Assembly (NCBI GenBank): GCA_964057225.1
Contig: OZ059895.1
Location: forward strand, 12,152,001-12,216,000
Origin: Auanema rhodensis
Lineage: Eukaryota > Animalia > Nematoda
DNA: 64,000 nt
Direction: 5' to 3'
The notes below the pieces were generated by a model. That model saw only the letters and a program-made list of their open reading frames with translations. It was not told the DNA's origin and searched no databases. The translations under genes and the position numbers were made by a program. Shown here in pieces: positions 6,651 through 60,146 of this stretch; position 1 is the stretch's first letter, and the number at the start of each line of letters is the position of its first letter.

Positions 6651-6664
6651 TTTCAAATTTTTTT
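6650..6664 (+). terminator. Pol III oligo-T terminator (representative)
   Basis: TTTTCAAATTTTTTT directly after the 5S 3' end. Confidence 0.85.
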
Positions 6665-7589: not shown

Positions 7590-7622
7590 GCTTACGACCA
7601 TACCACGTTGAAAGTACGCCAT
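7590..7622 (+). pseudogene. Truncated 5S (nt 1-33 only), representative 399-bp unit
   Basis: GCTTACGACC...GTACGCCAT joins directly to spacer GCAGCTG; 130 bp including the internal control region and terminator are absent. Confidence 0.93.
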
Positions 7623-9904: not shown

Positions 9905-10021
9905 CTTACGGCACCCGGGATTCCCAAGCCGTCTCCGATCCAAGTACTAACCGGGCTCAACGTTGCTTGACTTGCCAGATCGGACGGGATGGCGTACTTT
10001 CAACGTGGTATGGTCGTAAGC
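9905..10021 (-). rRNA. Inverted 5S copy (nt 1-117, G65A variant)
   Basis: Reverse complement of 5S plus 69 bp of upstream spacer (to 10090); minus-strand TTTTT 6 nt downstream. Confidence 0.9.
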
Positions 10022-10691: not shown

Positions 10692-10808
10692 CTTACGGCA
10701 CCCGGGATTCCCAAGCCGTCTCCGATCCAAGTACTAACCGGGCTCAACGTTGCTTGACTTGCCAGATCGGACGGGATGGCGTACTTTCAACGTGGTATGG
10801 TCGTAAGC
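10692..10808 (-). rRNA. Inverted 5S copy
   Basis: Same inverted cassette and junctions as 9905-10021. Confidence 0.9.
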
Positions 10809-13800: not shown

Positions 13801-14792
13801 TTTCGCTTACGACCATACCACGTTGAAAGTACGCCATCCCGTCCGATCTGGCAAGTCAAGCAACGTTGGGCCCGGTTAGTACTTGGATCGTAGACGGCTT
13901 GGGAATCCCGGGTGCCGTAAGCTTTTCAAATTTTTTTAACGATCATACCACGTTGAAAGTACGCCATGCAGCTGATTTTCAATTTTATCTCTTCCGTAAC
14001 AAATGTTTTCAATTTTCCAGCAGTTTTACTTAGATAGCTCAACCCAAGGCATTAAAATATCTTCAATCTTATTTCTATATTACAGTTATAAACCAGTAGT
14101 TTATGAACCTTCATCTTAACTTTACTGTTTCTATCTATTTCCTATTGAAACAAACATTGTTTAAACACTATACAACTGTGAAACCTTTTTTAATTTATTG
14201 TATTTGGATCTCATAAGATTTGATATCATCGAGGGATTTAGATGTTACGTAGAAAATTACATAACTAACATGAAATTGGAAAAAAAACAATAACGAGGAT
14301 AAGTATGTAAATCATTGAATATCAGATATTTTCGCTTACGATCATACCACGTTGAAAGTACGCCATCCCGTCTGATCTGGCAAGTCAAGCAACGTTGGGC
14401 CCGGTTAGTACTTGGATCGGAGACGGCTTGGGAATCCCGGGTGCCGTAAGCTTTTCAAATTTTTTTAACGATCATACCACGTTGAAAGTACGCCATGCAG
14501 CTGATTTTCAATTTTATCTCTTCCGTAACAAATGTTTTCAATTTTCCAGCAGTTTTACTTAGATAGCTCAACCCGAGGCATTAAAATATCTTCAATCTTA
14601 TTTCTATATTACAGTTATAAACCAGTAGTTTATGAACCTTCATCTTAATTTTACTGTTTTTATCTATTTCCTATTGAAACAAACATTGTTTAAACACTAT
14701 ACAACTGTGAAACCTTTTTTAATTTATTGTATTTGGATCTCATAAGATTTGATATCATCGAGGGATTTAGATGTAACGTAGAAAAATACATA

Positions 14793-14909
14793 CTTACGGC
14801 ACCCGGGATTCCCAAGCCGTCTCCGATCCAAGTACTAACCGGGCTCAACGTTGCTTGACTTGCCAGATCGGACGGGATGGCGTACTTTCAACGTGGTATG
14901 GTCGTAAGC
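14793..14909 (-). rRNA. Inverted 5S copy
   Basis: Same inverted cassette. Confidence 0.9.
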
Positions 14910-15579
14910 GAAAATATCTGATATTCAATGATTTACATACTTACCCTCGTTATTGTTTTTTTTCCAATTTCATGTTAGAATTTATTGTATTTGGATCTCA
15001 TAAGATTTGATATCATCGAGGGATTTAGATGTAACGTAGAAAATTACATAACTAAAATGAAATCGGAAAAAAACAATAACGAGGATAAGTATGTAAATCA
15101 TTGAATATCAGATATTTTCGCTTACGACCATACCACGTTGAAAGTACGCCATCCCGTCCGATCTGGCAAGTCAAGCATACGTTGGGACCGGTTAGTACTT
15201 GGATCGTAGACGGCTTGGGAATCCCGGGTGCCGTAAGCTTTTCAAATTTTTTTAACGATCATACCACGTTGAAAGTACGCCATGCAGCTGATTTTCAATT
15301 TTATCTCTTCCGTAACAAATGTTTTCAATTTTCCAGCAGTTTTACTTAGATAGCTCAACCCGAGGCATTAAAATATCTTCAATCTTATTTCTATATTACA
15401 GTTATAAACCAGTAGTTTATGAACCTTCATCTTAATTTTACTGTTTTTATCTATTTCCTATTGAAACAAACATTGTTTAAACACTATACAACTGTGAAAC
15501 CTTTTTTAATTTATTGTATTTGGATCTCATAAGATTTGATATCATCGAGGGATTTAGATGTAACGTAGAAAAATACATA

Positions 15580-15696
15580 CTTACGGCACCCGGGATTCCC
15601 AAGCCGTCTCCGATCCAAGTACTAACCGGGCTCAACGTTGCTTGACTTGCCAGATCGGACGGGATGGCGTACTTTCAACGTGGTATGGTCGTAAGC
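15580..15696 (-). rRNA. Inverted 5S copy
   Basis: Same inverted cassette. Confidence 0.9.
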
Positions 15697-17292
15697 GAAA
15701 ATATCTGATATTCGATGATTTACATACTTATCCTCGTTATTGTTTTTTTTCCAATTTCATGTTAGAATTTATTGTATTTGGATCTCATAAAATTTGATAT
15801 CATCGAGGGATTTAGATGTAACGTAGAAAATTACATAACTAAAATGAAATCGGAAAAAAAACAATAACGAGGATAAGTATGTAAATCATTGAATATCAGA
15901 TATTTCCGCTTACGACCATACCACGTTGAAAGTACGCCATCCCGTCCGATCTGGAAGTCAAGCAACGTTGGGCCCGGTTAGTACTTGGATCGTAGACGGC
16001 TTGGGAATCCCGGGTGCCGTAAGCTTTTCAAATTTTTTTAACGGTCATGCCACGTTGAAAGAACGCCATGCAGCTGATTTTCAATTTTATCTCTTCCGTA
16101 ACAAATGTTTTTAATTTTCCAGCAGTTTTACATAGATAGCTCAACCCAAGGCATCAAAATATCTTCAATCTTATTTCTTTATTACAGTTAAAAACCAGTA
16201 GTTTATGAACCTTCATCTTAACTTCACTGTTTCTATCTATTTCCTATTAAAACAAACGTTGTTTAAACACTATAGAACTGTGAAACCTTTTTTAATTTAT
16301 TGTATTTGGAGCTCATAAGATTTGATATCATCGAGGGATTTAGATGTAACGTAGAAAATTACATAACTAACATGAAATTGGAAAAAAAACAATAACGAGG
16401 ATAAGTATGTAAATCATTGAATATCAGATATTTCCGCTTACGACCATACCACGTTGAAAGTACGCCATGCAGCTGATTTTCAATTTTATCTCTTCCGTAA
16501 CAAATGTTTTTATTTTCCAGCAGTTTTACTTAGATAGCTAAACCGAAGGCATCAAAATATCTTCAATCCTATTTCTATATTACATTTATAAACCAATAGT
16601 TCATGAACCTTCATCTTAACTTTACTGTTTCTATCTATTTCCTATTGAAACAAACAATGTTTTAACACTATACAACTGTGAAACCTTTTTTAATTTATTG
16701 TATTTGGAGCTCATAAGATTCAATATCATCGAGGGATTTAGATGTAACATAGAAAATTACATAACTAACATGAAATTGGAAAAAAAACAATAACGAGGAT
16801 AAGTATGTAAATCATTGAATATCAGATATTTTCGCTTACGATCATACCACGTTGAAAGTACGCCATCCCGTCTGATCTGGCAAGTCAAGCAACGTTGGGC
16901 CCGGTTAGTACTTGGATCGGAGACGGCTTGGGAATCCCGGGTGCCGTAAGCTTTTCAAATTTTTTTAACGATCATACCACGTTGAAAGTACGCCATGCAG
17001 CTGATTTTCAATTTTATCTCTTCCGTAACAAATGTTTTCAATTTTCCAGCAGTTTTACTTAGATAGCTCAACCCGAGGCATTAAAATATCTTCAATCTTA
17101 TTTCTATATTACAGTTATAAACCAGTAGTTTATGAACCTTCATCTTAATTTTACTGTTTTTATCTATTTCCTATTGAAACAAACATTGTTTAAACACTAT
17201 ACAACTGTGAAACCTTTTTTAATTTATTGTATTTGGATCTCATAAGATTTGATATCATCGAGGGATTTAGATGTAACGTAGAAAAATACATA

Positions 17293-17409
17293 CTTACGGC
17301 ACCCGGGATTCCCAAGCCGTCTCCGATCCAAGTACTAACCGGGCTCAACGTTGCTTGACTTGCCAGATCGGACGGGATGGCGTACTTTCAACGTGGTATG
17401 GTCGTAAGC
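17293..17409 (-). rRNA. Inverted 5S copy
   Basis: Same inverted cassette. Confidence 0.9.
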
Positions 17410-18079
17410 GAAAATATCTGATATTCAATGATTTACATACTTACCCTCGTTATTGTTTTTTTTCCAATTTCATGTTAGAATTTATTGTATTTGGATCTCA
17501 TAAGATTTGATATCATCGAGGGATTTAGATGTAACGTAGAAAATTACATAACTAAAATGAAATCGGAAAAAAACAATAACGAGGATAAGTATGTAAATCA
17601 TTGAATATCAGATATTTTCGCTTACGACCATACCACGTTGAAAGTACGCCATCCCGTCCGATCTGGCAAGTCAAGCATACGTTGGGCCCGGTTAGTACTT
17701 GGATCGTAGACGGCTTGGGAATCCCGGGTGCCGTAAGCTTTTCAAATTTTTTTAACGATCATACCACGTTGAAAGTACGCCATGCAGCTGATTTTCAATT
17801 TTATCTCTTCCGTAACAAATGTTTTCAATTTTCCAGCAGTTTTACTTAGATAGCTCAACCCGAGGCATTAAAATATCTTCAATCTTATTTCTATATTACA
17901 GTTATAAACCAGTAGTTTATGAACCTTCATCTTAATTTTACTGTTTTTATCTATTTCCTATTGAAACAAACATTGTTTAAACACTATACAACTGTGAAAC
18001 CTTTTTTAATTTATTGTATTTGGATCTCATAAGATTTGATATCATCGAGGGATTTAGATGTAACGTAGAAAAATACATA

Positions 18080-18196
18080 CTTACGGCACCCGGGATTCCC
18101 AAGCCGTCTCCGATCCAAGTACTAACCGGGCTCAACGTTGCTTGACTTGCCAGATCGGACGGGATGGCGTACTTTCAACGTGGTATGGTCGTAAGC
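18080..18196 (-). rRNA. Inverted 5S copy
   Basis: Same inverted cassette. Confidence 0.9.
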
Positions 18197-21100
18197 GAAA
18201 ATATCTGATATTCGATGATTTACATACTTATCCTCGTTATTGTTTTTTTTCCAATTTCATGTTAGAATTTATTGTATTTGGATCTCATAAAATTTGATAT
18301 CATCGAGGGATTTAGATGTAACGTAGAAAATTACATAACTAAAATGAAATCGGAAAAAAAACAATAACGAGGATAAGTATGTAAATCATTGAATTTCAGA
18401 TATTTCCGCTTACGACCATACCACGTTGAAAGTACGCCATCCCGTCCGATCTGGAAGTCAAGCAACGTTGGGCCCGGTTAGTACTTGGATCGTAGACGGC
18501 TTGGGAATCCCGGGTGCCGTAAGCTTTTCAAATTTTTTTAACGGTCATGCCACGTTGAAAGAACGCCATGCAGCTGATTTTCAATTTTATCTCTTCCGTA
18601 ACAAATGTTTTTAATTTTCCAGCAGTTTTACATAGATAGCTCAACCCAAGGCATCAAAATATCTTCAATCTTATTTCTTTATTACAGTTAAAAACCAGTA
18701 GTTTATGAACCTTCATCTTAACTTCACTGTTTCTATCTATTTCCTATTAAAACAAACGTTGTTTAAACACTATAGAACTGTGAAACCTTTTTTAATTTAT
18801 TGTATTTGGAGCTCATAAGATTTGATATCATCGAGGGATTTAGATGTAACGTAGAAAATTACATAACTAACATGAAATTGGAAAAAAAACAATAACGAGG
18901 ATAAGTATGTAAATCATTGAATATCAGATATTTCCGCTTACGACCATACCACGTTGAAAGTACGCCATGCAGCTGATTTTCAATTTTATCTCTTCCGTAA
19001 CAAATGTTTTTAATTTTCCAGCAGTTTTACTTAGATAGCTAAACCGAAGGCATCAAAATATCTTCAATCCTATTTCTATATTACATTTATAAACCAGTAG
19101 TTCATGAACCTTCATCTTAACTTTACTGTTTCTATCTATTTCCTATTGAAACAAACAATGTTTTAACACTATACAACTGTGAAACCTTTTTTAATTTATT
19201 GTATTTGGAGCTCATAAGATTCAATATCATCGAGGGATTTAGATGTAACATAGAAAATTACATAACTAACATGAAATTGGAGAAAAAAACAATAACGAGG
19301 ATAAGTATGTAAATCATTGAATATCAGATATTTTCGCTTACGACCATACCACGTTGAAAGTACGCCATCCCGTCCGATCTGGCAAGTCAAGCAACGTTGG
19401 GCCCTGTTAGTACTTGGATCGGAGACGGCTTGGGAATCCCGGGTGCCGTAAGCTTTTCAAATTTTTTTAACGATCATGCCACGTTGAAAGAACGCCATGC
19501 AGCTGATTTTCAATTTTATCTCTTCCGTAACAAATGTTTTTAATTTTCCAGCAGTTTTACTTAGATAGCTCAACCCAAGGCATCAAAATATCTTCAATCT
19601 TATTTCTATATTACAGTTATAAACCAGTAGTTTATGAACCTTAATCTTAACTTTACTGTTTCTATCTATTTCCTATTTAAACAAACAATGTTTTAACACT
19701 ATACAACTGTGAAACCTTTTTCAATTTATTATATTTGGAGCTCATAAGATTCAATATCATCGAGGGATTTAGATGTAACGTAGAAAATTACATAACTAAC
19801 ATGAAATTGGAAAAAAAACAATAACGAGGATAAGTATGTAAATCATTGAATATCAGATATTTCCGCTTACGACCATACCACGTTGAAAGTACGCCATGCA
19901 GCTGATTTTCAATTTTATCTCTTCCGTAACAAATGTTTTCAATTTTCCAGCAGTTTTACTTAGATAGCTCAACCCAAGGCATCAAAATATCTTCAATCTT
20001 ATTTCTTTATTACAGTTAAAAACCAGTAGTTTATGAACCTTCATCTTAACTTCACTGTTTCTATCTATTTCCTATTAAAATAAACGTTGTTTAAACACTA
20101 TAGAACTGTGAAACCTTTTTTAATTTATTGTATTTGGAGCTCATAAGATTTGATATCATCGAGGGATTTAGATGTAACGTAGAAAATTACATAACTAACA
20201 TGAAATTGGAAAAAAAACAATAACGAGGATAAGTATGTAAATCATTGAATATCAGATATTTCCGCTTACGACCATACCACGTTGAAAGTACGCCATGCAG
20301 CTGATTTTCAATTTTATCTCTTCCGTAACAAATGTTTTTAATTTTCCAGCAGTTTTACTTAGATAGCTAAACCGAAGGCATCAAAATATCTTCAATCCTA
20401 TTTCTATATTACATTTATAAACCAGTAGTTCATGAACCTTCATCTTAACTTTACTGTTTCTATCTATTTCCTATTGAAACAAACAATGTTTTAACACTAT
20501 ACAACTGTGAAACCTTTTTAATTTATTGTATTTGGAGCTCATAAGATTCAATATCATCGAGGGATTTAGATGTAACATAGAAAATTACATAACTAACATG
20601 AAATTGGAAAAAAAAACAATAACGAGGATAAGTATGTAAATCATTGAATATCAGATATTTTCGCTTACGACCATACCACGTTGAAAGTACGCCATCCCGT
20701 CCGATCTGGCAAGTCAAGCAACGTTGGGCCCGGTTAGTACTTGGATCGGAGACGGCTTGGGAATCCCGGGTGCCGTAAGCTTTTCAATTTTTTTTAACGA
20801 TCATACCACGTTGAGAGTACGCCATGCAGCTGATTTTCAATTTTATCTCTTCCGTAACAAATGTTTTTAATTTTCCAGCAGTTTTACTTAGATAGCTCAA
20901 CCCAAGGCATCAAAATATCTTCAATCTTATTTCTATATTACAGTTATAAACCAGTAGTTTATGAACCTTAATCTTAATTTTACTGTTTTTATCTATTTCC
21001 TATTGAAACAAACATTGTTTAAACACTATACAACTGTGAAACCTTTTTTAATTTATTGTATTTGGATCTCATAAGATTTGATATCATCGAGGGATTTAGA

Positions 21101-21652
21101 TGTTACGTAGAAAATTACATAACTAACATGAAATTTGGAAAAAAAAACAATAACGAGGATAAGTATGTAAATCATTGAATATCAGATATTTTCGCTTACG
21201 ACCATACCACGTTGAAAGTATGCCATCCCGTCCGATCTGGCAAGTCAAGCATCGTTGGGCCCGGTTAGTACTTAGGTCGGAGACGGCTTGGGAATCCCTG
21301 GTGCCGTAAGCTTTTCAATTTTTTTTAACGATCATACCACGTTGAAAGTACGCCATGCAGCTGATTTTCAATTTTATCTCTTCCGTAACAAATGTTTTCA
21401 ATTTTCCAGCAGTTTTACTTAGATAGCTCAACCCGAGGCATTAAAATATCTTCAATCTTATTTCTATATTACAGTTATAAACCAGTAGTTTATGAACCTT
21501 CATCTTAATTTTACTGTTTTTATCTATTTCCTATTGAAACAAACATTGTTTAAACACTATACAACTGTGAAACCTTTTTTAATTTATTGTATTTGGATCT
21601 CATAAGATTTGATATCATCGAGAGATTTAGATGTAACGTAGAAAAATACATA

Positions 21653-21769
21653 CTTACGGCACCCGGGATTCCCAAGCCGTCTCCGATCCAAGTACTAACC
21701 GGGCTCAACGTTGCTTGACTTGCCAGATCGGACGGGATGGCGTACTTTCAACGTGGTATGGTCGTAAGC
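21653..21769 (-). rRNA. Inverted 5S copy
   Basis: Same inverted cassette. Confidence 0.9.
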
Positions 21770-21981
21770 GAAAATATCTGATATTCAATGATTTACATAC
21801 TTATCCTCGTTATTGTTTTTTTTCCAATTTCATGTTAGAATTTATTGTATTTGGATCTCATAAGATTTGATATCATCGAGGGATTTAGATGTAACATAGA
21901 AAATTACATAACTAACATGAAATTGGAAAAAAAAACAATAACGAGGATAAGTATGTAAATCATTGAATATCAGATATTTTC

Positions 21982-22049
21982 GCTTACGACCATACCACGT
22001 TGAAAGTACGCCATCCCGTCCGATCTGGCAAGTCAAGCAACGTTGGGCC
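21982..22049 (+). pseudogene. 5' half (nt 1-68) of the 5S gene interrupted by element B; ends in TSD GGGCC 22045-22049
   Basis: 5S sequence stops at ...CAACGTTGGGCC and resumes at 31995 with GGGCCCGGTTAG. Confidence 0.96.
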
Positions 22050-22387
22050 TGTCGCTTGACAAACTGGACTTTTACCTCCAAGTATCAGTCCAAGTATGGA
22101 GTCGGTTCGTATGAGTGCGGTATTATGCGTTAAGACAAGTTAAATGAAGAAAGGTTTATTCAATAAATGCAACAACAGTAAAGTGAACAAGTGGATTGAT
22201 TCTAGAAATTCCAAGAAATCCTAAAATCAATACAAAATTGGTGAGACATGAGTTTTTTCCATCTGGTTCTCCCTTTTATAGGGAGGCACCAGATGGATCA
22301 AGGGGAGGAGAATGTTTTTGCGAGACAAAGTAAGAATGAGTGAAAATCAGTATGAAACTTACATATTCTTTCACGTCGACCGTGACA
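22050..22387 (-). repeat. 3' LTR of element B
   Basis: TGTCGCTTGAC...GACCGTGACA; no difference found from 31657-31994; minus-strand TATAAAA 22274-22280 and AATAAA 22155-22160. Confidence 0.97.
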
Positions 22388-22395
22388 GTCCGCGC

Positions 22396-22881
22396 CTAAA
22401 GTCTTCTTTTTTTGTTTGCTGAGCAGAGAGCAGAATGATGATCCGTTCCTTGACAGCGACTGCAGGTTATGTTGCAGTCGTCCATGTGCGCGGGGGCCAA
22501 GCATTTCACACAGATTCTTAGATGGTTACATCTAAGTGATCTGTGGTGGGCAGTTGGATATACTGGACAGTTGAACGAGCGATGGCCGTCGGCAGGAGTT
22601 GATTCACAGAATACGCATGAGTTAGGGTTCTTTAGGTTGGCAAGATTGTTGGTATTGTTGAGGAGAAGCTGCGATTGCAAATAGAGTTGATCAATCTTTG
22701 CGTTTAGTTGCTCCAGAGCAGCTTCAATGTTGGACGCACGAAGACGACTCTTTTCTTCAAGAATAATAATATGCTTCAGTTTTAGCGGTTCGCTTGGAAG
22801 CTGCTCCATATTTGAAAGCTTCAAATCATCGATGATTGATAGGAGGTTATCGTTCATTCTGACCGAAGTAGGTTCGGTCAT
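22396..22881 (-). CDS. Accessory sense ORF of element B: coiled coil plus triple zinc knuckle plus basic C-terminus (161 aa from ATG)
   Basis: CVFC-x7-H-x4-C, CVKC-x4-H-x3-C, CSRC-x4-HH-x3-C, ending KKRRL. TACTTCAG acceptor-like site 15 nt before the ATG; stop 8 nt before the 3' LTR; homologue in element C. Confidence 0.85.
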   Translation of the reverse strand: MTEPTSVRMNDNLLSIIDDLKLSNMEQLPSEPLKLKHIIILEEKSRLRASNIEAALEQLNAKIDQLYLQSQLLLNNTNNLANLKNPNSCVFCESTPADGHRSFNCPVYPTAHHRSLRCNHLRICVKCLAPAHMDDCNITCSRCQGTDHHSALCSANKKRRL

Positions 22882-23020
22882 AATGATCGTCCGCAACTGA
22901 AGTATTTGTAAAATTTATCTCTATTTATACTAGATTTTTGTACCTCCCCCTTGAATTTTTCTTTTGTTTTCTTTAGATTCAAAAAAAAAATTTTTTTTTT
23001 TATAGTTGTAGTTGTTGCAG

Positions 23021-23410
23021 ATGTCACAAATACAGTATCAGATGGAAGAAGACGAGCTCGGTCCATATGAATTATGCGATCGATGTAAGGCTCAGGACAC
23101 TCATCGTATACGGGAAGGCCCGGTAAGCTTATTGTTTTTTATTTATTTATTATATATTTTTTTTTTTTTTTTTTTTTTTTTATCTCAGTATTGTTGCAGA
23201 TGACGGACGATGAGCTTTATCCGGAGGATGGAGTTGAGCCAACTCGGGAGCAGCTCATCTACATGTTCTCGAGGATGCCGTTGCCTCCCAACTGCAGATT
23301 CTGCAGGGCAAAGAACCCCCGCCACCACGAACGTGAGGAGGTAAGCTTATATATTTTAACTGTGAATGTAAGTATTCTTGCAGATCTCAGACGATGATAG
23401 TGAGGGGTAA
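23021..23410 (+). CDS. Spliced antisense gene of element B; exons 23021-23122, 23200-23340, 23384-23410; 89-aa acidic protein with two CxxC motifs
   Basis: Phase-0 introns GTAAGC...TTGCAG of 77 and 43 nt; AATAAA at 23516-23521; frame and splice sites conserved in element C with mostly synonymous changes. Confidence 0.82.
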
Positions 23411-23575
23411 CTTGTAACTTCAAATATATAGTGTTTTTGTTTTGTTTTGTTTTTTTTTTTGTTTTTTTTTTTTTTTTTTTTTTTAAGTGTTTATAAATTG
23501 TTCTTATAGCTAATTAATAAAGTTTTTTTTTTTTTTTTTTTTTTTTTTTATTATTACTACAGTAAGATTAGTGTT

Positions 23576-25096
23576 TTAATTTTTATTTGTGCTAGACTCA
23601 GCTCTGTGTCTAGGATTTCTGAGCATTTTTCTCATTAATGATGTAATTATCATCACAATTTTTATTATCTGAATGATTAGTTTTTGTATGCTTATGATTA
23701 TTATAATGATTGTTTGTACCCCTATTATATAAGATAATACTGGTATAAAAACAGTCATCAGGAGTAAGCATATTGATAATGCCCAGTTTGTTTTAACTAC
23801 ATTTAGAATGTTTCTCCAGGTGTTAGCATTTGTCACAATGTTCATGATTGTTTTTTCAACGTCTGGAATTTCACTATCCCATTGTAAGGTTCCTTGTATG
23901 ATCATGCGGTGTTTTTCATTGGCACATGTTACAAAGCATTCTTCATAGATTTCAGAATTCTCTGAGTAATATTCCACAGCTGTAAGTGGCATGTGTGGAG
24001 CGCATTCAATCATGTATATGTTCTCACTACATTGCATTGTGATCCAAGACTCCTTTTGTGATATACACATGAACTCGGCAACAGCCGTTCTTCTGCAGCT
24101 GTGACACCCGGAAAGTTTTTTAAATTCCGGTCGACAAGGAAAGTCGTACAGGAAGGTACGAGACGACACATTCCCTTGTAGTTGAAGAACAACAGTTGAT
24201 TCATCAGTTTGAGGAATAAGTGTTAATTTGTTTTCTTTCATGGTAATTAGGGTGTTCTTGGTGTTCATGGGTAATAAGTTTGCCTGATTGAAAATATTAT
24301 CAGATGGACAGGTACATGTTAGCTCTTCCCTTTTTGAAATTTTGCAGTTGCACAACCTCAGTATTTTACAAGAGTTAAATTCATTTGTAGTTTGATATTT
24401 GGTTTTGCATGCTACTTCACTCATAGTATGAGGTTCCATGTAATAACTGTTTATGGTTGACAATGCATATTTGGTGTTCAAATATCGGGTTGGTGGCACA
24501 ATATGGGAGATTGAGCTTATATTAAAGTTTGGAAAATTAACAGTGTCGTATGGTTTTAAAAGAATATTAATATTGGCTTTGTGTTTAAATAGATCATATT
24601 TTACCTCTAATGGTATATTTATTTCCCAAGAATCACATTCTACTATTTCATAAACTATTTCATTGATTGGTTTAAACTCAGTTTGATAGATTGAGCAACC
24701 GTCTTCAAGAGACCAACATCCGCAGAAAAGAGAGCCACATCGCCTAGCACAACCAACTTGTGTTGGTCCTTCTTTTTTATCAAATTCTTGTAATTGTCCA
24801 ATAGGATTTATAGCTTCACAAGTGTGATTACAAGATCCTGATCCATAACAGGAATATTGAGTTTTGTATTGAATTGTGCTTTCTCGAGTATAATATAGCG
24901 TACTTTTCTGGCAAATGTATTCTGTTGGTTTTTTCGTTATTTCTATTTTGCCGATAGATTTATTTTGGTAAATGAATTCTAAGCAAGCGTCTCTTATGCC
25001 TTTATTGAAAATGATTTCATTATCGTATTCTTGATAACAATTTGTTCGATTAATGCAAATTATATTTATTGAATGCTTAATATGTGAGTTTGAACA
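23576..25096 (-). other. Phlebovirus Gc (G2)-like class II fusion glycoprotein domain
   Basis: Starts CSNSH after a signal-like stretch (LSIALMVLLITVES); fusion-loop-like CGSLFCGCWSLEDGC (24695-24739) resembles phlebovirus CGGWGCGCF; GCHSC motif; hydrophobic C-terminal anchor. Such env genes are known in nematode BEL/Pao elements. Confidence 0.85.
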
Positions 25097-28000
25097 AGAT
25101 TCCACTGTTATTAATAATACCATGAGTGCTATCGATAATTGTAATGAAGTGAATGATGATGTTCTCATGTAATTTGGAATTTTAATAGTTTCTGGAATAT
25201 CATTTTTCCATTTTGGAGTTACATTGTCAAACTTCGTGGTTACTGTGTTTTCCTTTTGTACGACTACATCGTCTGAACTTGTTAATCTTTTTGAATCAGG
25301 TTTTCCACTTCTAACTTCGGTTAGTATCGTTTGCCAATTATCATTTAAAAATTTATACCAATATTGGTCATTTTTATGAGCTTTCAATACTCTTTTACAA
25401 ATTGCTAATATAGTAAATAATAGTATAATTGGTATGAAAAATGTTATCAAAGTCGTTAATGGATTACATTGAGGGAAATATAATGCTTCCGCTGTTAGCA
25501 ATTCAGAGGATTGGCATGTAGCCTCAACTGTTGGAATTATCCCAAGAAGAGCTACTTTTGGAACAATCGTTTTCATTTTATTTTTCTTAAAATAACTTCT
25601 TACCGCTGCTTGACTACCTTGTGTTCTTGTTCTGAACCATCTATTTAGATTTGAAGGTTTGGATTCATTTTCGGTTTGAAGAGTTATCTCATTTGTTTGA
25701 TCTTTCTCTTGTTCTAAGTTCGTATTATTAGAATCATTTTCGTCTCCTGCGTCGTTGATGATATTCATGTTGGGTGTATAGATTTCGAGTGGTATTACAT
25801 TGTTACTTTGTTCACTTTCTTGAGTATTTTCAATAGTTTCAACATTTTCAACCCGATTTCCTTTTTGTGTTACCGTCCCGGTGATTAAAAATGGATTCAC
25901 TTGGTATTTTTTATTGTATCTCATTGAGTGAGGTTCTGACGCAAACGGTGCTGCTTCTGCGTTTCTCACTTCTAGTGGATATATGTGGTTTAATGAACGA
26001 GTTGTTATGAGACCAGTGCCAGTTATTAGTTTTGCAGATCTAACTTCCCCATCTGCACTTTTTATCAGTTCTATTATGCGTCCTAATTTCCATTTACCTC
26101 TACTTGAATTATCATTTTGTATTATAATAACTTCTCCTTCTTGTGGTTTCTTAGCATTCGTTGCAGGTTGTTTTCTGTTGTGTTTGTAAATATCTCTAAG
26201 ATAAAGTAAATACTCGGAATAGAATTTTTTCCAAAATAGTTGAGTTACATCGTTAGATAACTCTATTGCTTCAATGGCTTGCTCTATAGTTTGTATTGTC
26301 CTGCTATTGATAGTTTTATCATAAATTCGGGTATTCGATACGTTCGAAGAAAGTGTAAACCTGATGGAACGGTTTAAAAAATCACAAGGTCTGATAGGCA
26401 AAATGTTCAGGTTGGATGGGTTCGGATGTGTAAGCGGGCGAGTATTCAAAATTGTTTCGATTTTTACAATTACTGTATGTATATCATCAATTGACATTAA
26501 TCTATTTCCAATTGTTTTGTATAGTGCTAACTTTGTTAGTCCTACTAGTCTTTCCCATGTTCCACCTTTCCATGGAGCCTGTGGTGTGTTGAAGTACCAT
26601 TTAATATTCTTTTCGGCAAGATAATTGGTTAATGTTTTTTCATTTTTAGATTCATGGTTTTCTGTGTAAAACTCTATTACTTTAGCACTTAATAAGAAAT
26701 TTCCTCCATTATCGCTTCGTATTATTTCTGGAATACCTCTTCTTCCAATGAACCTTTCGAAAGCGTTTAAGAATGCTTTTGTTGATTGGTCAAAAACTAT
26801 TTCTAAGTGTATAGCTCTTATAGCTAAACAAGTAAACAGACATATAAATATCTTTTTGCCATCCTTTATGGTTATTGGACCTAATAAGTCACAACCTGTA
26901 CTCATGAATGGTTTTGTTAGAATTACTCTATCCTTAGGCAATGCTGGCATTAAGGACGTTCCAAACGGCAAAGCGTTGTATCTATTGCAGATTGTGCATG
27001 TTTTGAGAACTGATCTGACTATGCTTGATGGTTTACTTAAAAAGTATTTTTGACGCAAAAGTGTTAGAACAAAATCTCTCCCTTGGTGCATGCATTCTCT
27101 GTGTAAATGCATAATTATGTGTTCTGTGTACGGAGAATCCCTTGGAAGATATATGGGATTTTGAGTTTCAAACGGTAATTCCGAGTTGTTCAATCTACTA
27201 CGAACTCTGATTATTTCTTCATCGAGAAAAAATACAAAACCTTCATGTTTTTTCGTGAGGAGATCTATTGTTACATGCTGTTGTGCTTTACTTATTAGTA
27301 GTTTGGTTATAATCTCAATATCATTAGCTGTAGTTTGCCAGTTTTCATCTAATTGCATTACCTTATTTAACCTTGTTATAGCTGTGGGATGTACTTTTAT
27401 GATCCAATGTCTCAAGAATTTACTTAATTTAACTATAGTTTTCAGTAAGGTATAGTTGTTGCTACGTAATTTAAATATATCTTCAACTGGTATTTGTGTT
27501 ATTTGTTGTTGTTCAACGGTATCGATCAAGGTTGTTATATTCCAAATAGGCTCATATTCAATTTCTTCAATGTGTGATTTTGTTTGGGTTAACCATTGTG
27601 GTCCTTTAATCCACATAGAATCACTTAGTTCTTGGAGACAAGCTCTTCGAGAACCAATATCGGCTGGGTTATAATCACCATTCACATGAAAAAGTTTGAT
27701 TTTAATGTTACTTTCCTTCAATTTATCTATATACTTCCTTACATTGTCGACGCGACAGCCTACATATGGTGGTAAAGTTTTCTGATGGTTAGCTATCCAA
27801 TGTAAGGCTACCTTACTGTCACTGGCTACGTGTACAGTTTTAAGATGATTGGTTGTAGATGTGACATTATCAGCTAACATAATACCTAATAGTATGGCAA
27901 TGAGTTCTAGTCTTGGGATAGTCAGATTTCCCTTCTTTGCAATTTTCGACTTTCCGCTTACAAGTTGGCTTATTTTACCATTGGTTTCAATGTATGTGCA

Positions 28001-31000
28001 GGCAGCAATGGCTAGTTTACTAGCATCCGTAAATACCCATAATATAGAGTCATTCAGGTTTAACTTTCTTTCAAGTCTCAATTCCTTTTCATTTAATAAT
28101 TCATTTATAGCTAAATTCCATTTATGTGTTATTTCTTTGGGTAATTCTACATCCCAACCCTTGAATTGATCACTTGATTCTCTTAGTAGTAATTTTAATG
28201 GTAAAATCAATGGGCTTGCCATACCTAATGGATCGAATATTGAATGTATTTGACTTAACATGTTCCTGTGCGTGTTGATTTCAAATTTCTTTAATTTAAG
28301 TATAAGAACGAATAAATCTAATTTTGTATCATAATTTAAACCCAAAATTTTGGTAGTATTATGTGGGTATTTGTCTTCATTGTTCATATCTTCAGTAACT
28401 TTTGGATTGTTGCTCATAAATTCTCTTAAATTCATAGAAATGCCTTGTAAGATTTTCTTGGCTTTTTCGCATTTTATCTTAGCTTCTTCAACACTGTTTG
28501 CATATAAAATTATATTGTCAACATATAAGGAATCGAGCAAGTGACTAGCGTAAGGGTCGGTATGATTATTGAGGTACCAGGCTAAGCTCATGCTTAATAT
28601 ACCCGGGGACGCTGTTATACCAAATGGTAGCCGTTTGAATTGGTATGTCATGACGTTATATTTATTTACCGATTCATTTTCGTTTCTAATCCAGAAAAAT
28701 TTACAATATTTTCTGTGCTCTTCTTTAATACTTATTTGTAAAAATGCTGACTCAATGTCGCAGGTTATTATTATTGGACTTTTTCTACATTTTATTAATA
28801 TATCATGAATTTTGTGAATAAATGTTTGGCCTGAATGCATAACTTGGTTCAACGATGGACTATTTTTTTGTTTTGCTGAAGCATCAAACACGATTCTTAA
28901 AGGTCGAGCTTTTTCTTTTCTCCACACTCCATGATGTGGTAAGAAAAATCCATCTTCGGCTGATTCATCAACAATTGGCTCGATAATTCCCTTTTGAATG
29001 TATTCATTTATTAATTTTTTATACCATTCTAGTTGTTCTTTATTAGAGTGTAGATTTTTCCATAATGTCATGAATCTATGAAAAGCTGGCCATTTATTAT
29101 TTTTCAATTTATTCAAATAATTTTTAAATGGAAACGGAGCTTCAATTCTCCCGGCTTTAATGGATAGTTTTTTACTATATTCTTTAAGATAATTCTCTGC
29201 TTCTGCATTGTTATCTACTATGGTGCTTATTCCAATAGTATCGATAAGGAAAAGTTCTTTCAGTTTTGTTTCTGGAGGTGGTTCATGACTTTGTTCCTCT
29301 TCAATGCTACACAGAGTTACAATTTTTTCAAGTTTAGTTTCTCCATTTATAAGAGTTCCAAATACAGATCCTTTACATAAAAGATCAGAGGGAAGTCTGA
29401 ATTCTTCATTGTCTTTTACAAACAATTTTAATCTATCTTGTCCAATCAAAACATCCGGTTCAAAAACTTCCCCATTTGTATCGGTATTGGCTAATATAAT
29501 ATTATTTTCTTTAATGAAGCTCAAATCCTTTCTTGAAAGATAAGGACTATATATGTGGGAACTGATTTTTGGCTTAGTGAGCATTTCAGTTACAATTAAA
29601 TTTTTTTCTTTAGTATAGAATATTGTGTTTACTATACTTGAAACATGAGAATGTTTCATTCCTCCAATACCATGAAATGTTTTTCTTTGTTTGGATTTAA
29701 CTGGTAGTTTCATCCTTTTTGCTAGATCTTCTCTGATAAAAGATCGTTGAGAACAATCATCAAAAATAATGTTAACTTTCTCATAACTATCGCTATTGTA
29801 ATTGAACAAATTTGCTTTTGCTGTTCGTAAAATTATTTGGCCTTTTTCTACGTCATGATTACCAACAATTGTGGTTAAACTTGTGGGTTCTTCATGTGCT
29901 TTCTTTGGAATAATTGTTTGATTATTTCTGGTCTTTTCTTCATCATTACCCCTTTGTAAAGAAATGTTGGTGATGACTCCATTTCTATTCTGATTTCTTT
30001 TATTTTGGTAACAAACTGAAATGTTGTGATCATCATGACAGCTGTTGCATTTAAACTTTGGCCATGTGCAGTTTTTGCTTTGATGATTGTCTGCAAAGCA
30101 TACATAACATAGCCTTTTTTCTCTTAAAATTTTCCTTTTTTCCGTTGTTTCAATAGGACACATATGGCTATTGTGTGAATTGTTCGCGCAAAAAACGCAA
30201 TTCCTTCTTTGTTTCAAATCCTTAACTTCATTCAATCGAAATTGTTTTTTAGTTTGATCACCATCTGGATTTTTACTTTTTTCATTGTTACTGAGATACA
30301 GTGATTCAGTGTTTTCAGTCATCTGTAGTAGTTTTACTTGCGCCGAAATATGTTCAATGATTTTCTCGTGGGACCATTCAAAATTTTGTTTGATGTGAAT
30401 ATCTTTGATTATTTCAAATGGGAATTTATTGAGTACGGTAGCAACATAAAGCTCTTTGGTTAAAGATCCTCCCGCCGCTTGAATCTGTCGCAGCAGAGCT
30501 TTTATCTCTCTTAGCGTTTGAGCACAACTATCGGCTCGTCTTGAAGCTTTTGGCACCTTATTCAACTTGTTGATCAGCGTTGCTGTATCAACAGCGTATG
30601 AGGAATATTCTTCCTTCAAACAATTTTTCATAAACTCATAGTTTTCTTCGGTACCGGGAATTCCCCTAAGAAGATATTCGGCTTCACCTGATAAGGACTC
30701 ACATAGGAAGTTCACTTTTTCACTTATAGAGAAAGATTCATTGTTATCAATCATTCTCATAAATCTATCCCAGAATAAAGGGAATTTTTCCGGAGTACCG
30801 TCAAAGGTTGGAGTTTTTAATACGGGTCTTTGCAGTATTTGGTTAATCAGTCTTACTTCATTAACATGCTGATCATGCACTACCTGATCGGGTAAACTGT
30901 TTTGTTTTTCTTGTACCTCGTTTGTACAATTTTCATATTCTTTTTCTTCTGTATATTCAACTCTTTCCCGAAGTTGTTGTAATTCAAGTTGTATTTCCAT

Positions 31001-31408
31001 ATCTTTGATTTTTTCTTTATTTTTATCAATAAGATTTTTTAAGAATATCAACTTGTCATTCAATTCCAGTATTATTAACGTGGCATTGCCACGGATGTCT
31101 CCTTTCTCACCTTCTTCGAATTTTGTAAATTTTTTGTTTAATTCTTTTTGGTGCTCTTCTTCTAAAAGCTCACAAACTCTTTGAAAATTAATTTCAATGG
31201 TTTCAATTGATTGGAGTTTATTCTCCAAAATATTCAAGTAATTTTTAACTCTTGCACATTCATTCTCTTGCGCAATAATTTGATTTACCGGCTCAGACAA
31301 TTCTGAGTAATCGGTCATTTTCTTATAGTTTTCAACTTTAGAATTCAGTTTATTCAAAAATTCTAATTCTCTCCCCATTTGGAGAATATATCTTTGAGCG
31401 GAGGACAT
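23576..31408 (-). CDS. Gag-Pol-Env polyprotein of element B (2610 aa from the first ATG)
   Basis: Gag PTFDGTPEKFPLFW plus three zinc knuckles; protease IIFDDCSQRSFI; RT LYVDNI; RNase H VFTDAS; integrase HHCC plus DLLGP / SDNGGNF / WERLVG; GKWKLGRI domain; Cys-rich glycoprotein with C-terminal TM. Confidence 0.96.
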   Translation of the reverse strand: MSSAQRYILQMGRELEFLNKLNSKVENYKKMTDYSELSEPVNQIIAQENECARVKNYLNILENKLQSIETIEINFQRVCELLEEEHQKELNKKFTKFEEGEKGDIRGNATLIILELNDKLIFLKNLIDKNKEKIKDMEIQLELQQLRERVEYTEEKEYENCTNEVQEKQNSLPDQVVHDQHVNEVRLINQILQRPVLKTPTFDGTPEKFPLFWDRFMRMIDNNESFSISEKVNFLCESLSGEAEYLLRGIPGTEENYEFMKNCLKEEYSSYAVDTATLINKLNKVPKASRRADSCAQTLREIKALLRQIQAAGGSLTKELYVATVLNKFPFEIIKDIHIKQNFEWSHEKIIEHISAQVKLLQMTENTESLYLSNNEKSKNPDGDQTKKQFRLNEVKDLKQRRNCVFCANNSHNSHMCPIETTEKRKILREKRLCYVCFADNHQSKNCTWPKFKCNSCHDDHNISVCYQNKRNQNRNGVITNISLQRGNDEEKTRNNQTIIPKKAHEEPTSLTTIVGNHDVEKGQIILRTAKANLFNYNSDSYEKVNIIFDDCSQRSFIREDLAKRMKLPVKSKQRKTFHGIGGMKHSHVSSIVNTIFYTKEKNLIVTEMLTKPKISSHIYSPYLSRKDLSFIKENNIILANTDTNGEVFEPDVLIGQDRLKLFVKDNEEFRLPSDLLCKGSVFGTLINGETKLEKIVTLCSIEEEQSHEPPPETKLKELFLIDTIGISTIVDNNAEAENYLKEYSKKLSIKAGRIEAPFPFKNYLNKLKNNKWPAFHRFMTLWKNLHSNKEQLEWYKKLINEYIQKGIIEPIVDESAEDGFFLPHHGVWRKEKARPLRIVFDASAKQKNSPSLNQVMHSGQTFIHKIHDILIKCRKSPIIITCDIESAFLQISIKEEHRKYCKFFWIRNENESVNKYNVMTYQFKRLPFGITASPGILSMSLAWYLNNHTDPYASHLLDSLYVDNIILYANSVEEAKIKCEKAKKILQGISMNLREFMSNNPKVTEDMNNEDKYPHNTTKILGLNYDTKLDLFVLILKLKKFEINTHRNMLSQIHSIFDPLGMASPLILPLKLLLRESSDQFKGWDVELPKEITHKWNLAINELLNEKELRLERKLNLNDSILWVFTDASKLAIAACTYIETNGKISQLVSGKSKIAKKGNLTIPRLELIAILLGIMLADNVTSTTNHLKTVHVASDSKVALHWIANHQKTLPPYVGCRVDNVRKYIDKLKESNIKIKLFHVNGDYNPADIGSRRACLQELSDSMWIKGPQWLTQTKSHIEEIEYEPIWNITTLIDTVEQQQITQIPVEDIFKLRSNNYTLLKTIVKLSKFLRHWIIKVHPTAITRLNKVMQLDENWQTTANDIEIITKLLISKAQQHVTIDLLTKKHEGFVFFLDEEIIRVRSRLNNSELPFETQNPIYLPRDSPYTEHIIMHLHRECMHQGRDFVLTLLRQKYFLSKPSSIVRSVLKTCTICNRYNALPFGTSLMPALPKDRVILTKPFMSTGCDLLGPITIKDGKKIFICLFTCLAIRAIHLEIVFDQSTKAFLNAFERFIGRRGIPEIIRSDNGGNFLLSAKVIEFYTENHESKNEKTLTNYLAEKNIKWYFNTPQAPWKGGTWERLVGLTKLALYKTIGNRLMSIDDIHTVIVKIETILNTRPLTHPNPSNLNILPIRPCDFLNRSIRFTLSSNVSNTRIYDKTINSRTIQTIEQAIEAIELSNDVTQLFWKKFYSEYLLYLRDIYKHNRKQPATNAKKPQEGEVIIIQNDNSSRGKWKLGRIIELIKSADGEVRSAKLITGTGLITTRSLNHIYPLEVRNAEAAPFASEPHSMRYNKKYQVNPFLITGTVTQKGNRVENVETIENTQESEQSNNVIPLEIYTPNMNIINDAGDENDSNNTNLEQEKDQTNEITLQTENESKPSNLNRWFRTRTQGSQAAVRSYFKKNKMKTIVPKVALLGIIPTVEATCQSSELLTAEALYFPQCNPLTTLITFFIPIILLFTILAICKRVLKAHKNDQYWYKFLNDNWQTILTEVRSGKPDSKRLTSSDDVVVQKENTVTTKFDNVTPKWKNDIPETIKIPNYMRTSSFTSLQLSIALMVLLITVESCSNSHIKHSINIICINRTNCYQEYDNEIIFNKGIRDACLEFIYQNKSIGKIEITKKPTEYICQKSTLYYTRESTIQYKTQYSCYGSGSCNHTCEAINPIGQLQEFDKKEGPTQVGCARRCGSLFCGCWSLEDGCSIYQTEFKPINEIVYEIVECDSWEINIPLEVKYDLFKHKANINILLKPYDTVNFPNFNISSISHIVPPTRYLNTKYALSTINSYYMEPHTMSEVACKTKYQTTNEFNSCKILRLCNCKISKREELTCTCPSDNIFNQANLLPMNTKNTLITMKENKLTLIPQTDESTVVLQLQGNVSSRTFLYDFPCRPEFKKLSGCHSCRRTAVAEFMCISQKESWITMQCSENIYMIECAPHMPLTAVEYYSENSEIYEECFVTCANEKHRMIIQGTLQWDSEIPDVEKTIMNIVTNANTWRNILNVVKTNWALSICLLLMTVFIPVLSYIIGVQTIIIIIISIQKLIIQIIKIVMIITSLMRKMLRNPRHRAESSTNKN

Positions 31409-31508
31409 TATTTTAGCCTTCCTCAATGGATATTTCAGATTCAGCGATATTTTTATCGTCTTATTGTTTCTTGACAAGTAATTTCTTGTCAACTCGGATT
31501 TTCTACGA

Positions 31509-31601
31509 GTTCTTCGGAATTTTATTTCTCCGGCGGTTCTATATAACCTTTAACACAGTGTTCTTCGGAATTTATTTCTCCGGCGGTTCTATATAACCTT
31601 T
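31509..31601. repeat. Two-copy direct repeat of about 42 bp in the element B 5' leader
   Basis: GTTCTTCGGAAT(T)TTATTTCTCCGGCGGTTCTATATAACCTTT at 31509-31551 and 31560-31601. Confidence 0.9.
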
Positions 31602-31637
31602 GTTTTAAACTTTCCTTATCAGTAAGCAACTGAATTA

Positions 31638-31654
31638 TCCTGCCGTGGTCGCCA
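31638..31654 (-). promoter_or_regulatory. Primer-binding site of element B, tRNA-Arg type
   Basis: Minus strand TGGCGACCACGGCAGGA 2 nt after the 5' LTR; complementary to the ...TCCTGCCGTGGTCGCCA 3' end of nematode tRNA-Arg as I recall it. Confidence 0.85.
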
Positions 31655-31656
31655 AA

Positions 31657-31994
31657 TGTCGCTTGACAAACTGGACTTTTACCTCCAAGTATCAGTCCAA
31701 GTATGGAGTCGGTTCGTATGAGTGCGGTATTATGCGTTAAGACAAGTTAAATGAAGAAAGGTTTATTCAATAAATGCAACAACAGTAAAGTGAACAAGTG
31801 GATTGATTCTAGAAATTCCAAGAAATCCTAAAATCAATACAAAATTGGTGAGACATGAGTTTTTTCCATCTGGTTCTCCCTTTTATAGGGAGGCACCAGA
31901 TGGATCAAGGGGAGGAGAATGTTTTTGCGAGACAAAGTAAGAATGAGTGAAAATCAGTATGAAACTTACATATTCTTTCACGTCGACCGTGACA
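31657..31994 (-). repeat. 5' LTR of element B
   Basis: 338 bp, matches 22050-22387; adjacent to the PBS. Confidence 0.97.
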
Positions 31995-32050
31995 GGGCCC
32001 GGTTAGTACTTGGATCGTAGACGGCTTGGGAATCCCGGGTCCCGTAAGCT
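31995..32050 (+). pseudogene. 3' half (nt 64-119) of the 5S gene interrupted by element B
   Basis: Begins with duplicated GGGCC then CGGTTAGTACTTGG...CGTAAGCT. Confidence 0.95.
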
Positions 32051-35000
32051 TTTCAATTTTTTTTAACGATCATACCACGTTGAAAGTACGCCATGCAGCT
32101 GATTTTCAATTTTTTCTCTTCCGTAACAAATGTTTTCAATTTTCCAGCAGTTTTACTTAGATAGCTCAACCCAAGGCATCAAAAAATCTTCAATCTTATT
32201 TCTATATTACAGTTACAAACCAGTAGTTTATGAACCTTAATCTTAACTTTACTGTTTCTATCTATTTCCTATTAAAACAAACGTTGTTTAAACACTATAG
32301 AACTGTGAAACCTTTTTAATTTATTGTATTTGGAGCTCATAAGATTCAATATCATCGAGGGATTTAGATGTAACGTAGAAAATTACATAACTAACATGAA
32401 ATTGGAAAAAAAACAATAACGAGGATAAGTATGTAAATCATTGAATATCAGATATTTCCGCTTACGACCATACCACGTTGAAAGAACGCCATGCAGCTGA
32501 TTTTCAATTTTATCTCTTCCGTAACAAATGTTTTTAATTTTCCAGCAGTTTTACTTAGATAGCTCAACCCAAGGCATCAAAATATCTTCAATCTTATTTC
32601 TATATTACAGTTATAAACCAGTAGTTTATGAACCTTAATCTTAACTTTACTGTTTCTATCTATTTCCTATTGAAACAAACAATGTTTTAACACTATACAA
32701 CTGTGAAACCTTTTTAATTTATTGTATTTGGAGCTCATAAGATTCAATATCATCGAGGGATTTAGATGTAACGTAGAAAATTACATAACTAACATGAAAT
32801 TGGAAAAAAAACAATAACGAGGATAAGTATGTAAATCATTGAATATCAGATATTTCCGCTTACGACCATACCACGTTGAAAATACGCCATGCAGCTGATT
32901 TTCAATTTTATCTCTTCCGTAACAAATGTTTTCAATTTTCCAGCAGTTTTACTTAGATAGCTCAACCCAACGCATCAAAATATCTTCAATCTTATTTCTT
33001 TATTACAGTTAAAAACCAGTAGTTTATGAACCTTCATCTTAACTTCACTGTTTCTATCTATTTCCTATTAAAACAAACGTTGTTTAAACACTATAGAACT
33101 GTGAAACCTTTTTTAATTTATTGTATTTGGAGCTCATAAGATTTGATATCATCGAGGAATTTAGATGTAACGTAGAAAATTACATAACTAACATGAAATT
33201 GGGAAAAAAACAATAACGAGGATAAGTATGTAAATCATTGAATATCAGATATTTCCGCTTACGACCATACCACGTTGAAAGTACGCCATGCAGCTGATTT
33301 TCAATTTTATCTCTTCCGTAACAAATGTTTTTAATTTTCCAGCAGTTTTACTTAGATAGCTAAACCGAAGGCATCAAAATATCTTCAATCCTATTTCTAT
33401 ATTACATTTATAAACCAGTAGTTCATGAACCTTCATCTTAACTTTACTGTTTCTATCTATTTCCTATTGAAACAAACAATGTTTTAACACTATACAACTG
33501 TGAAACCTTTTTTAATTTATTGTATTTGGAGCTCATAAGATTTGATATCATCGAGGGATTTAGATGTAACGTAGAAAATTACATAACTAACATGAAATTG
33601 GAAAAAAAACAATAACGAGGATAAGTATGTAAATTATTGAATATCAGATATTTCCGCTTACGACCATACCACGTTGAAAGTACGCCATGCAGCTGATTTT
33701 CAATTTTATCTCTTCCGTAACAAATGTTTTTAATTTTCCAGCAGTTTTACTTAGATAGCTCAACCCAAGGCATCAAAATATCTTCAATCTTATTTCTATA
33801 TTACAGTTATAAACCAGTAGTTTATGAACCTTAATCTTAACTTTACTGTTTCTATCTATTTCCTATTGAAACAAACAATGTTTTAACGCTATACAACTGT
33901 GAAACCTTTTTTAATTTATTGTATTTGGAGCTCATAAGATTCAATATCATCGAGGGATTTAGATGTAACGTAGAAAATTACATAACTAACATGAAATTGG
34001 AAAAAAAACAATAACGAGGATAAGTATGTAAATCATTGAATATCAGATATTTCCGCTTACGACCATACCACGTTGAAAGTACGCCATGCAGCTGATTTTC
34101 AATTTTATCTCTTCCGTAACAAATGTTTTCAATTTTCCAGCAGTTTTACTTAGATAGCTCAACCCAACGCATCAAAATATCTTCAATCTTATTTCTTTAT
34201 TACAGTTAAAAACCAGTAGTTTATGAACCTTCATCTTAACTTCACTGTTTCTATCTATTTCCTATTAAAACAAACGTTGTTTAAACACTATAGAACTGTG
34301 AAACCTTTTTTAATTTATTGTATTTGGAGCTCATAAGATTTGATATCATCGAGGGATTTAGATGTAACGTAGAAAATTACATAACTAACATGAAATTGGA
34401 AAAAAAAAAATAACGAGGATAAGTATGTAAATCATTGAATATCAGATATTTCCGCTTACGACCATACCACGTTGAAAGTACGCCATGCAGCTGATTTTCA
34501 ATTTTATCTCTTCCGTAACAAATGTTTTTAATTTTCCAGCAGTTTTACTTAGATAGCTAAACCGAAGGCATCAAAATATCTTCAATCCTATTTCTATATT
34601 ACATTTATAAACCAGTAGTTCATGAACCTTCATCTTAACTTTACTGTTTCTATCTATTTCCTATTGAAACAAACAATGTTTTAACACTATACAACTGTGA
34701 AACCTTTTTTAATTTATTGTATTTGGAGCTCATAAGATTTGATATCATCGAGGGATTTAGATGTAACGTAGAAAATTACATAACTAACATGAAATTGGAA
34801 AAAAAACAATAACGAGGATAAGTATGTAAATCATTGAATATCAGATATTTCCGCTTACGACCATACCACGTTGAAAGTACGCCATGCAGCTGATTTTCAA
34901 TTTTATCTCTTCCGTAACAAATGTTTTTAATTTTCCAGCAGTTTTACTTAGATAGCTCAACCCAAGGCATCAAAAAATCTTCAATCTTATTTCTATATTA

Positions 35001-60137: not shown

Positions 60138-60146
60138 TGCCGGGAA

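Follow-up and report, generated by a model that had tools for sequence, protein, structure and literature searches.

HTLV-1 HBZ and its counterparts APH-2, APH-3 and APH-4 in HTLV-2, HTLV-3 and HTLV-4 are coding genes that run antisense to their virus, are spliced, lie near its 3' end and are expressed apart from the 5' LTR (PMC10186651; here and below we cite the literature from the sections available to us). Three plant Ty3/gypsy antisense genes, Grande gene23 and those of RIRE2 and Retand (TRP28), are placed between pol/env and the 3' LTR (PMC7264820; PMC11963269). The plant antisense ORFs are conserved like core genes, have no cellular relatives and are of unknown function, and an own promoter has been demonstrated for that of Grande (PMC7264820). 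A nematode LTR element, Cer1 of C. elegans, makes the spliced, Cys-containing accessory protein CERV, which is needed for RNA export (PMC10309623). Atlas virus and other nematode belpaoviruses combine a single Gag-Pol-Env ORF, with a YVDN motif in the RT and a triple zinc knuckle, with a phlebovirus-like Env and identical short LTRs; no 3' accessory or antisense gene is described for them, and the word "antisense" is absent from the main texts (PMC9094657; 10.64898/2026.03.22.711591), as it is from those of the CERV paper (PMC10309623) and of a BEL/Pao survey (PMC3118150). Our literature search found no intron-bearing antisense gene in BEL/Pao elements and, in the available sections of PMC4367959, PMC12477816 and PMC5408684, no precedent in LTR elements; examples may already exist in papers on Cer elements, in Repbase or among the gene models of WormBase.

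Here we describe a predicted gene of this kind in an env-bearing BEL/Pao element of the nematode Auanema rhodensis. Its anatomy and its constraint in two copies are confirmed, and judged by its sequence the hidden gene is probably real and functional. It resembles HBZ and the APH genes in being antisense and near the 3' end and, as predicted, in being spliced, coding and expressed apart from the 5' LTR, and it resembles the plant genes in position. It differs from HBZ and APH in having no bZIP domain or sequence match to them, in carrying two short cellular-type introns inside the coding region, in having a segment to itself, free of overlap with sense genes, and in belonging to another virus family and host. 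Whereas the plant antisense genes are long ORFs, and the Retand survey does not contain the word "intron" (PMC11963269), the gene described here is tiny, intron-split and housed in a BEL/Pao element; Pfam finds no TRP28 (PF04195) match in it. CERV, unlike it, is encoded on the sense strand of a Gypsy/Ty3 element, has its N-terminus in common with Gag and measures about 62 kDa (PMC10309623). The likeness to HBZ and to the plant antisense ORFs is best regarded as analogy, not homology.

The window, by which we mean the whole stretch of 64,000 nucleotides that was analysed, consists of a 5S rDNA array, with 5S as the only family among its 46 Rfam matches, and contains three BEL/Pao elements, A, B and C. 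Element B is a young insertion with identical LTRs in a 5S rRNA gene (Table 1). Its polyprotein shows, in order, the Pfam domains DUF1759, Asp_protease_2 (weak), RVT_1, Peptidase_A17, Integrase_H2C2 and DUF5641, and ends in a phlebovirus-like class II G2 Env (PF07245, E=3.5e-46). The best solved structure for this Env is 7a4a (E=1.2e-24), which we take to be Atlas Gc. The YVDN motif of the RT and three zinc knuckles in NC are present in the translation, and the element has the organisation that defines Belpaoviridae: an LTR-flanked gag-pol(-env) with the order PR-RT-RH-IN and Pao-type domains. These features agree with nematode belpaoviruses such as Atlas (PMC9094657; ICTV profile PMC8742986). 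The Env, and the nematode neighbour of the 3' ORF in the ESM Atlas, point to a nematode host.

Another copy, element C, lies on the plus strand and has 96.8% identity to B across 22956-31055. It is damaged: part of its 5' LTR and gag are gone, a stop lies near 56166 and the 3' LTR is cut. Site-specific 5S targeting by a BEL/Pao element is likely; our literature search found no precedent for it. The array itself (6000-21900, 32000-51000 and 60170-64000) mixes full 5S genes with 399-bp units bearing only a 5S 5' fragment, and several 5S copies are inverted, for example at 9903-10021 and 21651-21769. No SL RNA gene was found within the window at Rfam's threshold. B and C sit in opposite orientations at the same offset (68) within the 5S rRNA gene, at a GGGCC/AGGCC site (22045-22050; 51023-51028); element A, unlike them, lies in the spacer of the array.

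Table 1. Coordinates of element B, the predicted antisense gene and neighbouring features (positions in the window)
Feature	Position	Strand	Description
Element B	22050-31995	minus	env-bearing BEL/Pao
3' LTR of B	22050-22388	minus	339 bp, identical to 5' LTR
5' LTR of B	31657-31995	minus	339 bp, identical to 3' LTR
Target duplication of B	22045-22049 and 31996-32000		GGGCC
Gag-Pol-Env polyprotein of B	23576-31408	minus	2610 aa from ATG, uninterrupted
3' sense ORF of B	22396-22881	minus	161 aa; Gag zinc-knuckle paralogue by sequence; TATA-like box at 22929
3' sense ORF of C	59676-60137	plus	153 aa; shares 33% identity with the B ORF; TATA-like box at 59634
T-rich leader (outron or intron end)	22930-23020	plus	B and C share a motif near 22935-22955
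Predicted exon 1	23021-23122	plus	102 nt, 34 codons; acidic stretch, CxxC-x5-H; ATG directly after TTGCAG acceptor
Predicted intron 1	23123-23199	plus	77 nt, phase 0, 14% GC
Predicted exon 2	23200-23340	plus	141 nt, 47 codons; acidic start, predicted helix, CxxC-x6-HH; begins AG/ATG
Predicted intron 2	23341-23383	plus	43 nt, phase 0; second donor-like GTAAGT at 23368
Predicted exon 3	23384-23410	plus	27 nt: 8 acidic codons and TAA; length and stop differ in C
Predicted 3' UTR	23411-23560	plus	AATAAA at 23516, flanked by T-runs, in a stretch without differences between B and C
Second gene copy in element C	58783-59204	minus	38, 47 and 15 codons

The predicted gene lies on the plus strand, opposite B's own genes, between the env stop (23576) and the 3' zinc-knuckle ORF. 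The first-pass annotation had proposed three exons here, and rechecking the sequence returned its coordinates, phases and translations exactly. It also returned the two introns of 77 and 43 nt, each opening with GTAAGCTTAT and closing with TTGCAG, as well as the downstream AATAAA among T-rich tracts, the sole AATAAA on the plus strand within 22389-23620. Both introns are GT-AG, T-rich and in phase 0. Base composition follows the same boundaries: the exons have 44-57% GC against 14-28% in introns and flanks, intron 2 being at the upper of these values. Exon 2, at 57%, exceeds every sampled 141-nt window of the polyprotein (maximum 47%), and its GC3 is 0.72 against 0.27. A scan of B for T-rich acceptors gave five on the plus strand and none on the element's own strand; three of the five fall in the 3' region, at 23012, 23021 and 23200, the first of them 9 nt upstream of the predicted 23021 site, and the acceptor of exon 3 failed the T-richness filter. 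The coincidence of GC blocks with splice signals counts against a reading of the latter as chance motifs. Three same-species contig sets compared with B and C contained no contig over the exons and no exon joints, and are uninformative on expression.

Several further details of the segment were recorded. An AG/ATG start occurs at all three exons of C (59204, 59014 and 58830) and at two of those of B (23021, 23200, 23384), and over 10 nt the two donors have the same sequence. Such starts and matching donors may reflect a duplication of exons or the use of alternative starts, although exons 1 and 2 show no significant similarity at the protein level (p about 0.1 in local alignment, 0.02 and 0.10 in global). 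On the genomic strand, 23135-23590 contains several AATAAA hexamers and A-runs, the longest of 27 nt; these could shorten the genomic RNA and end an env-bearing transcript early. One 193-nt contig, from one of three runs (presumably an RNA run), aligns with two differences to 22526-22718, inside the 3' ORF of B.

Comparison with element C yielded a measure of selection. In C (58783-59204) every GT and AG splice dinucleotide is retained, as the first-pass annotation had claimed, the third acceptor being TGTAG. We compared 81 paired codons of exons 1 and 2, leaving out four extra codons of C; the test thus involves two copies and 15 substitutions. Nine of the 15 nucleotide changes are silent, and the earlier list of nine synonymous codon changes proved exact; the accompanying count of about four replacements was too low, as there are six replacement changes in five codons, while the 12-nt indel between B and C is in frame as reported. 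The purifying selection that had been claimed is borne out for exons 1 and 2, in this comparison of two copies, by a dN/dS of 0.16 (Fisher p=9e-4) and by a type-preserving permutation in which each change is moved to a random site of the same base (p=0.009). The polyprotein is close to this value, with a dN/dS of 0.215 over 2489 codons. Third codon positions take 10 of the 15 changes. Replacement sites changed less than adjacent non-coding DNA (6/191 vs 35/320, p=0.001), while silent sites (9/52) showed no difference from that DNA (p=0.24), both comparisons being less sure for the T-runs included in the non-coding alignment.

The signal is unevenly distributed. Exon 1 is significant on its own (7 silent vs 4 replacement changes, p=0.002) and exon 2 is not (p=0.19), so that selection is detected mainly in exon 1; exon 3 has no silent and two replacement changes, and ends later in C, after 15 codons instead of 8. 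The indel pattern is uninformative, since two of the four non-coding indels have lengths not divisible by 3. In C the predicted protein retains each of its four Cys and three His. Of the six frames, solely that of the antisense gene is open in both exons and both copies. The other five are all interrupted; in four the ratio is above 1, and the fifth, a reverse frame that shares third positions, has a ratio of 0.25 but two to three stops per exon in both copies. Silent divergence is higher in the exons than in the polyprotein (9/52 vs 82/1590, p=0.002), which indicates that the segment has its own history, older than the rest of the B/C pair; part of the selection on the gene may predate its present setting. 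It is on the exon-intron anatomy, the open frame and the constraint in two copies that the antisense-gene reading rests, and we consider it very likely that this is a real, translated gene.

The predicted product has 89 residues in B and 100 in C. Exons 1 and 2 of B would encode an acidic protein (18 D/E vs 11 K/R) in which a CxxC-x5-H motif in exon 1 and a CxxC-x6-HH motif in exon 2, 43 residues apart, are kept in C; zinc binding is predicted from these motifs. Catalytic, membrane and basic motifs are absent, which together with the two CxxC-H motifs and the acidic stretches tentatively suggests a zinc-stabilised acidic adaptor. A structure model of exon 2 is weak (pLDDT 69, pTM 0.34), with two short helices of low confidence.

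Homologue and fold searches used single exons, and for exon 1 covered Pfam, PHROGs and the window. In Pfam neither exon of B had a match with E<=1, bZIP included, and PHROGs gave no family for the three exon queries. The earlier proposal is thus supported in part: the sequence and the two-copy comparison favour a constrained, intron-bearing antisense coding gene, and HBZ, which it cited as a precedent, is an analogy only. With exon 2, a word search among proteins of 56-179 aa found no homologue; that search also missed env and the 3' ORF, so that its database covers the lineage poorly and absence from it is weak evidence. Exon 2 gave an uninformative best score of 0.86 in the ESM Atlas, and its weak model had no match at E<=0.001 in PDB and BFVD. 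Two hits were rejected: a phmmer match of exon 2 to a bacterial repeat protein (E=4e-4 among 1.84 billion cluster representatives), dismissed as chance, and a viral contig match to exon 2 of 16 residues without the Cys motif. No family, homologue or fold from these searches speaks for any of the candidate roles first proposed, an acidic zinc-binding regulator, a silencing suppressor or a targeting cofactor.

Searches for related loci gave none in viral contigs queried with env or integrase, and none in metagenomes queried with the 3' ORF. The integrase query retrieved five distant GC-rich BEL/Pao loci (26-28% identity), none of which matches the exons, env or the 3' ORF. Four distant GC-rich BEL/Pao elements on metagenome contigs carry after pol a long sense ORF that does not match the env of B (L001 6797-9493, L002 6667-9825, L003 6905-9196, L004 1291-4236); that of L001 has a Cys/His-rich part.

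The antisense gene and the 3' sense ORF are arranged head to head. In blastp the 3' ORF matches the Gag of A and B (E 4e-10 and 8e-10), and is by this resemblance a paralogue of the Gag zinc-knuckle region; the ESM Atlas holds a similar nematode cluster of 142 aa (score 0.94, just below the tool's bar for recognition). The ORF region (22396-22929, minus; 59634-60137, plus) comprises a stand-alone triple zinc knuckle with a basic C-terminus, and the TATA-like box stands about 30 nt before TCAGT in both copies. Between B and C the 3' ORF, the spacer and U3 are strongly diverged, whereas the two elements have in common env, the antisense gene and, within the LTR, the TATA/R part, from which we conclude that the antisense gene travels with env. 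A 3' cassette swapped by recombination between subfamilies is likely from these sequences. The break is sharp: 22050-22955 of B and 59280-60170 of C differ, and 97% is shared elsewhere.

How the antisense gene would be started is suggested by its upstream region. No TATA was found upstream of it in B, and two candidates were found in C. Because the ATG directly follows an acceptor, a leader would be spliced on. Trans-splicing of an SL leader is general nematode biology, and the acceptor would fit it and an HBZ-like leader exon from the LTR equally well. A donor-like TTG/GTGAGA on the antisense strand of the LTR in B (22241) and C (51166) is a lead only, since that part of the LTR is conserved anyway. 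A further coding exon may lie upstream of exon 1. In B, CCTCCCC(C)TTGA occurs only upstream of the antisense ATG (22943-22954, plus) and upstream of the LTR TATA box (22308 and 31915, minus), and C retains a variant of it ahead of its copy of the gene. The motif may act as a promoter element or, read on the genomic strand, as a purine tract.

Other explanations of the segment have to be weighed against this evidence. That it is no gene, but AT-rich filler with chance splice-like motifs or a region constrained by a frame on the element strand, we consider highly improbable: splicing is predicted from sequence, and the reverse frame that shares third positions also has a low ratio, yet that frame is broken by stops in each exon of both copies, the GC blocks match the splice signals and the permutation test is significant. 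An effect of the antisense RNA itself, which would form double-stranded RNA and dampen the element while the protein is secondary or no longer needed, is suggested by the drift of exon 3 and its stop and by the complementarity to genomic RNA of any transcript made here, a dual role of the kind discussed in PMC7264820. The third-position bias and the kept Cys and His residues indicate selection at the protein level instead, and leave a primary RNA role very unlikely.

An intron-bearing host gene or gene fragment might have been taken up in reverse, its constraint coming from the host gene or its paralogues and not from any benefit to the element. The host-like introns, an exon-2 GC3 far above that of the polyprotein, a divergence older than the rest of the element and the confinement of long genomic-strand A-runs to the 3' region all agree with such a capture; no host-like relative appeared among the 1.84 billion cluster representatives, in Pfam or in the ESM Atlas, where eukaryote coverage is thin and env was missed too, and we judge capture unlikely. 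Alternatively, the protein might be a cofactor of integration or of the particle, which would direct insertion to 5S genes or have Gag, integrase or Env as its target; it might have arisen from an inverted, degenerate copy of the 3' zinc-knuckle ORF. B and C, which both bear the gene, do share their 5S offset (68) in opposite orientations, and the CxxC of exon 1 is similar to the final knuckle of the 3' ORF (with Cys fixed, nominal p 0.013-0.033). However, that resemblance comes from 16 comparisons and is lost on correction, the nearly identical integrases of B and C alone explain their common targeting, and B and C differ in two thirds of their 3' ORF but hardly at all in the antisense protein, which argues against a tight pair; a cofactor role is thus quite unlikely.

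We tentatively favour, at somewhat less than an even chance, an accessory gene encoded by the element on its antisense strand, whose small, acidic, predicted zinc-binding product would be the element's own regulator or a counter-silencing adaptor. Of its parts, that the gene serves the element is likely; that its protein has a regulatory or counter-silencing role is plausible, if a little short of an even prospect. Introns that are antisense to the genomic RNA are not removed from it and pass through reverse transcription, a principle known from retrotransposition indicator cassettes. Indeed, B has both introns and identical LTRs, so the introns were kept through a recent round of replication. 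Transcription would be independent of the 5' LTR and would start either in the 3' LTR or in the spacer that separates the gene from the head-to-head 3' ORF. The acceptor that precedes the ATG would receive a non-coding leader, through SL trans-splicing or from a donor in the LTR. The two short introns near the 5' end would then give the mRNA the look of a host-gene transcript, protective against small-RNA silencing in the germline. In the germline of C. elegans an Argonaute pathway can silence genes that lack introns, and expression is reported for constructs that have two introns, the first of them close to the start (PMC12055998); introns are described as a barrier to nuclear RNAi (PMC5554785). 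Given such protection, a spliced antisense gene suits a factor made while the element is repressed: the antisense gene would be expressed while the intronless gag-pol-env RNA is silenced. In the weakest step of the scheme, the protein of 89-100 residues would bind a host or element protein and thereby set expression of the element.

Retroelement annotation seeks long open frames, and a gene of about 90 residues that is split by introns on the opposite strand is therefore invisible to it. For other genomes the locus supplies a search recipe, namely to look 3' of env for phase-0 blocks that are GC-rich and set between T-rich tracts, and for this one it defines exact predicted junctions, 23122^23200 and 23340^23384. 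A wider proposition, which we regard as doubtful at present, is that nematode belpaoviruses are complex retroviruses with hidden, intron-bearing antisense accessory genes, which would provide a spliced, host-like mRNA for a counter-silencing protein while the intronless viral RNA is silenced; an equally doubtful part of it is that the antisense strand would be the sole place where a retroelement can keep introns. If the gene is expressed, belpaoviruses have a deltaretrovirus-like complexity, with a sense 3' ORF and an antisense gene that is spliced, and the gene becomes a concrete candidate for the means by which an LTR element remains active in the face of the small-RNA silencing of its nematode host.
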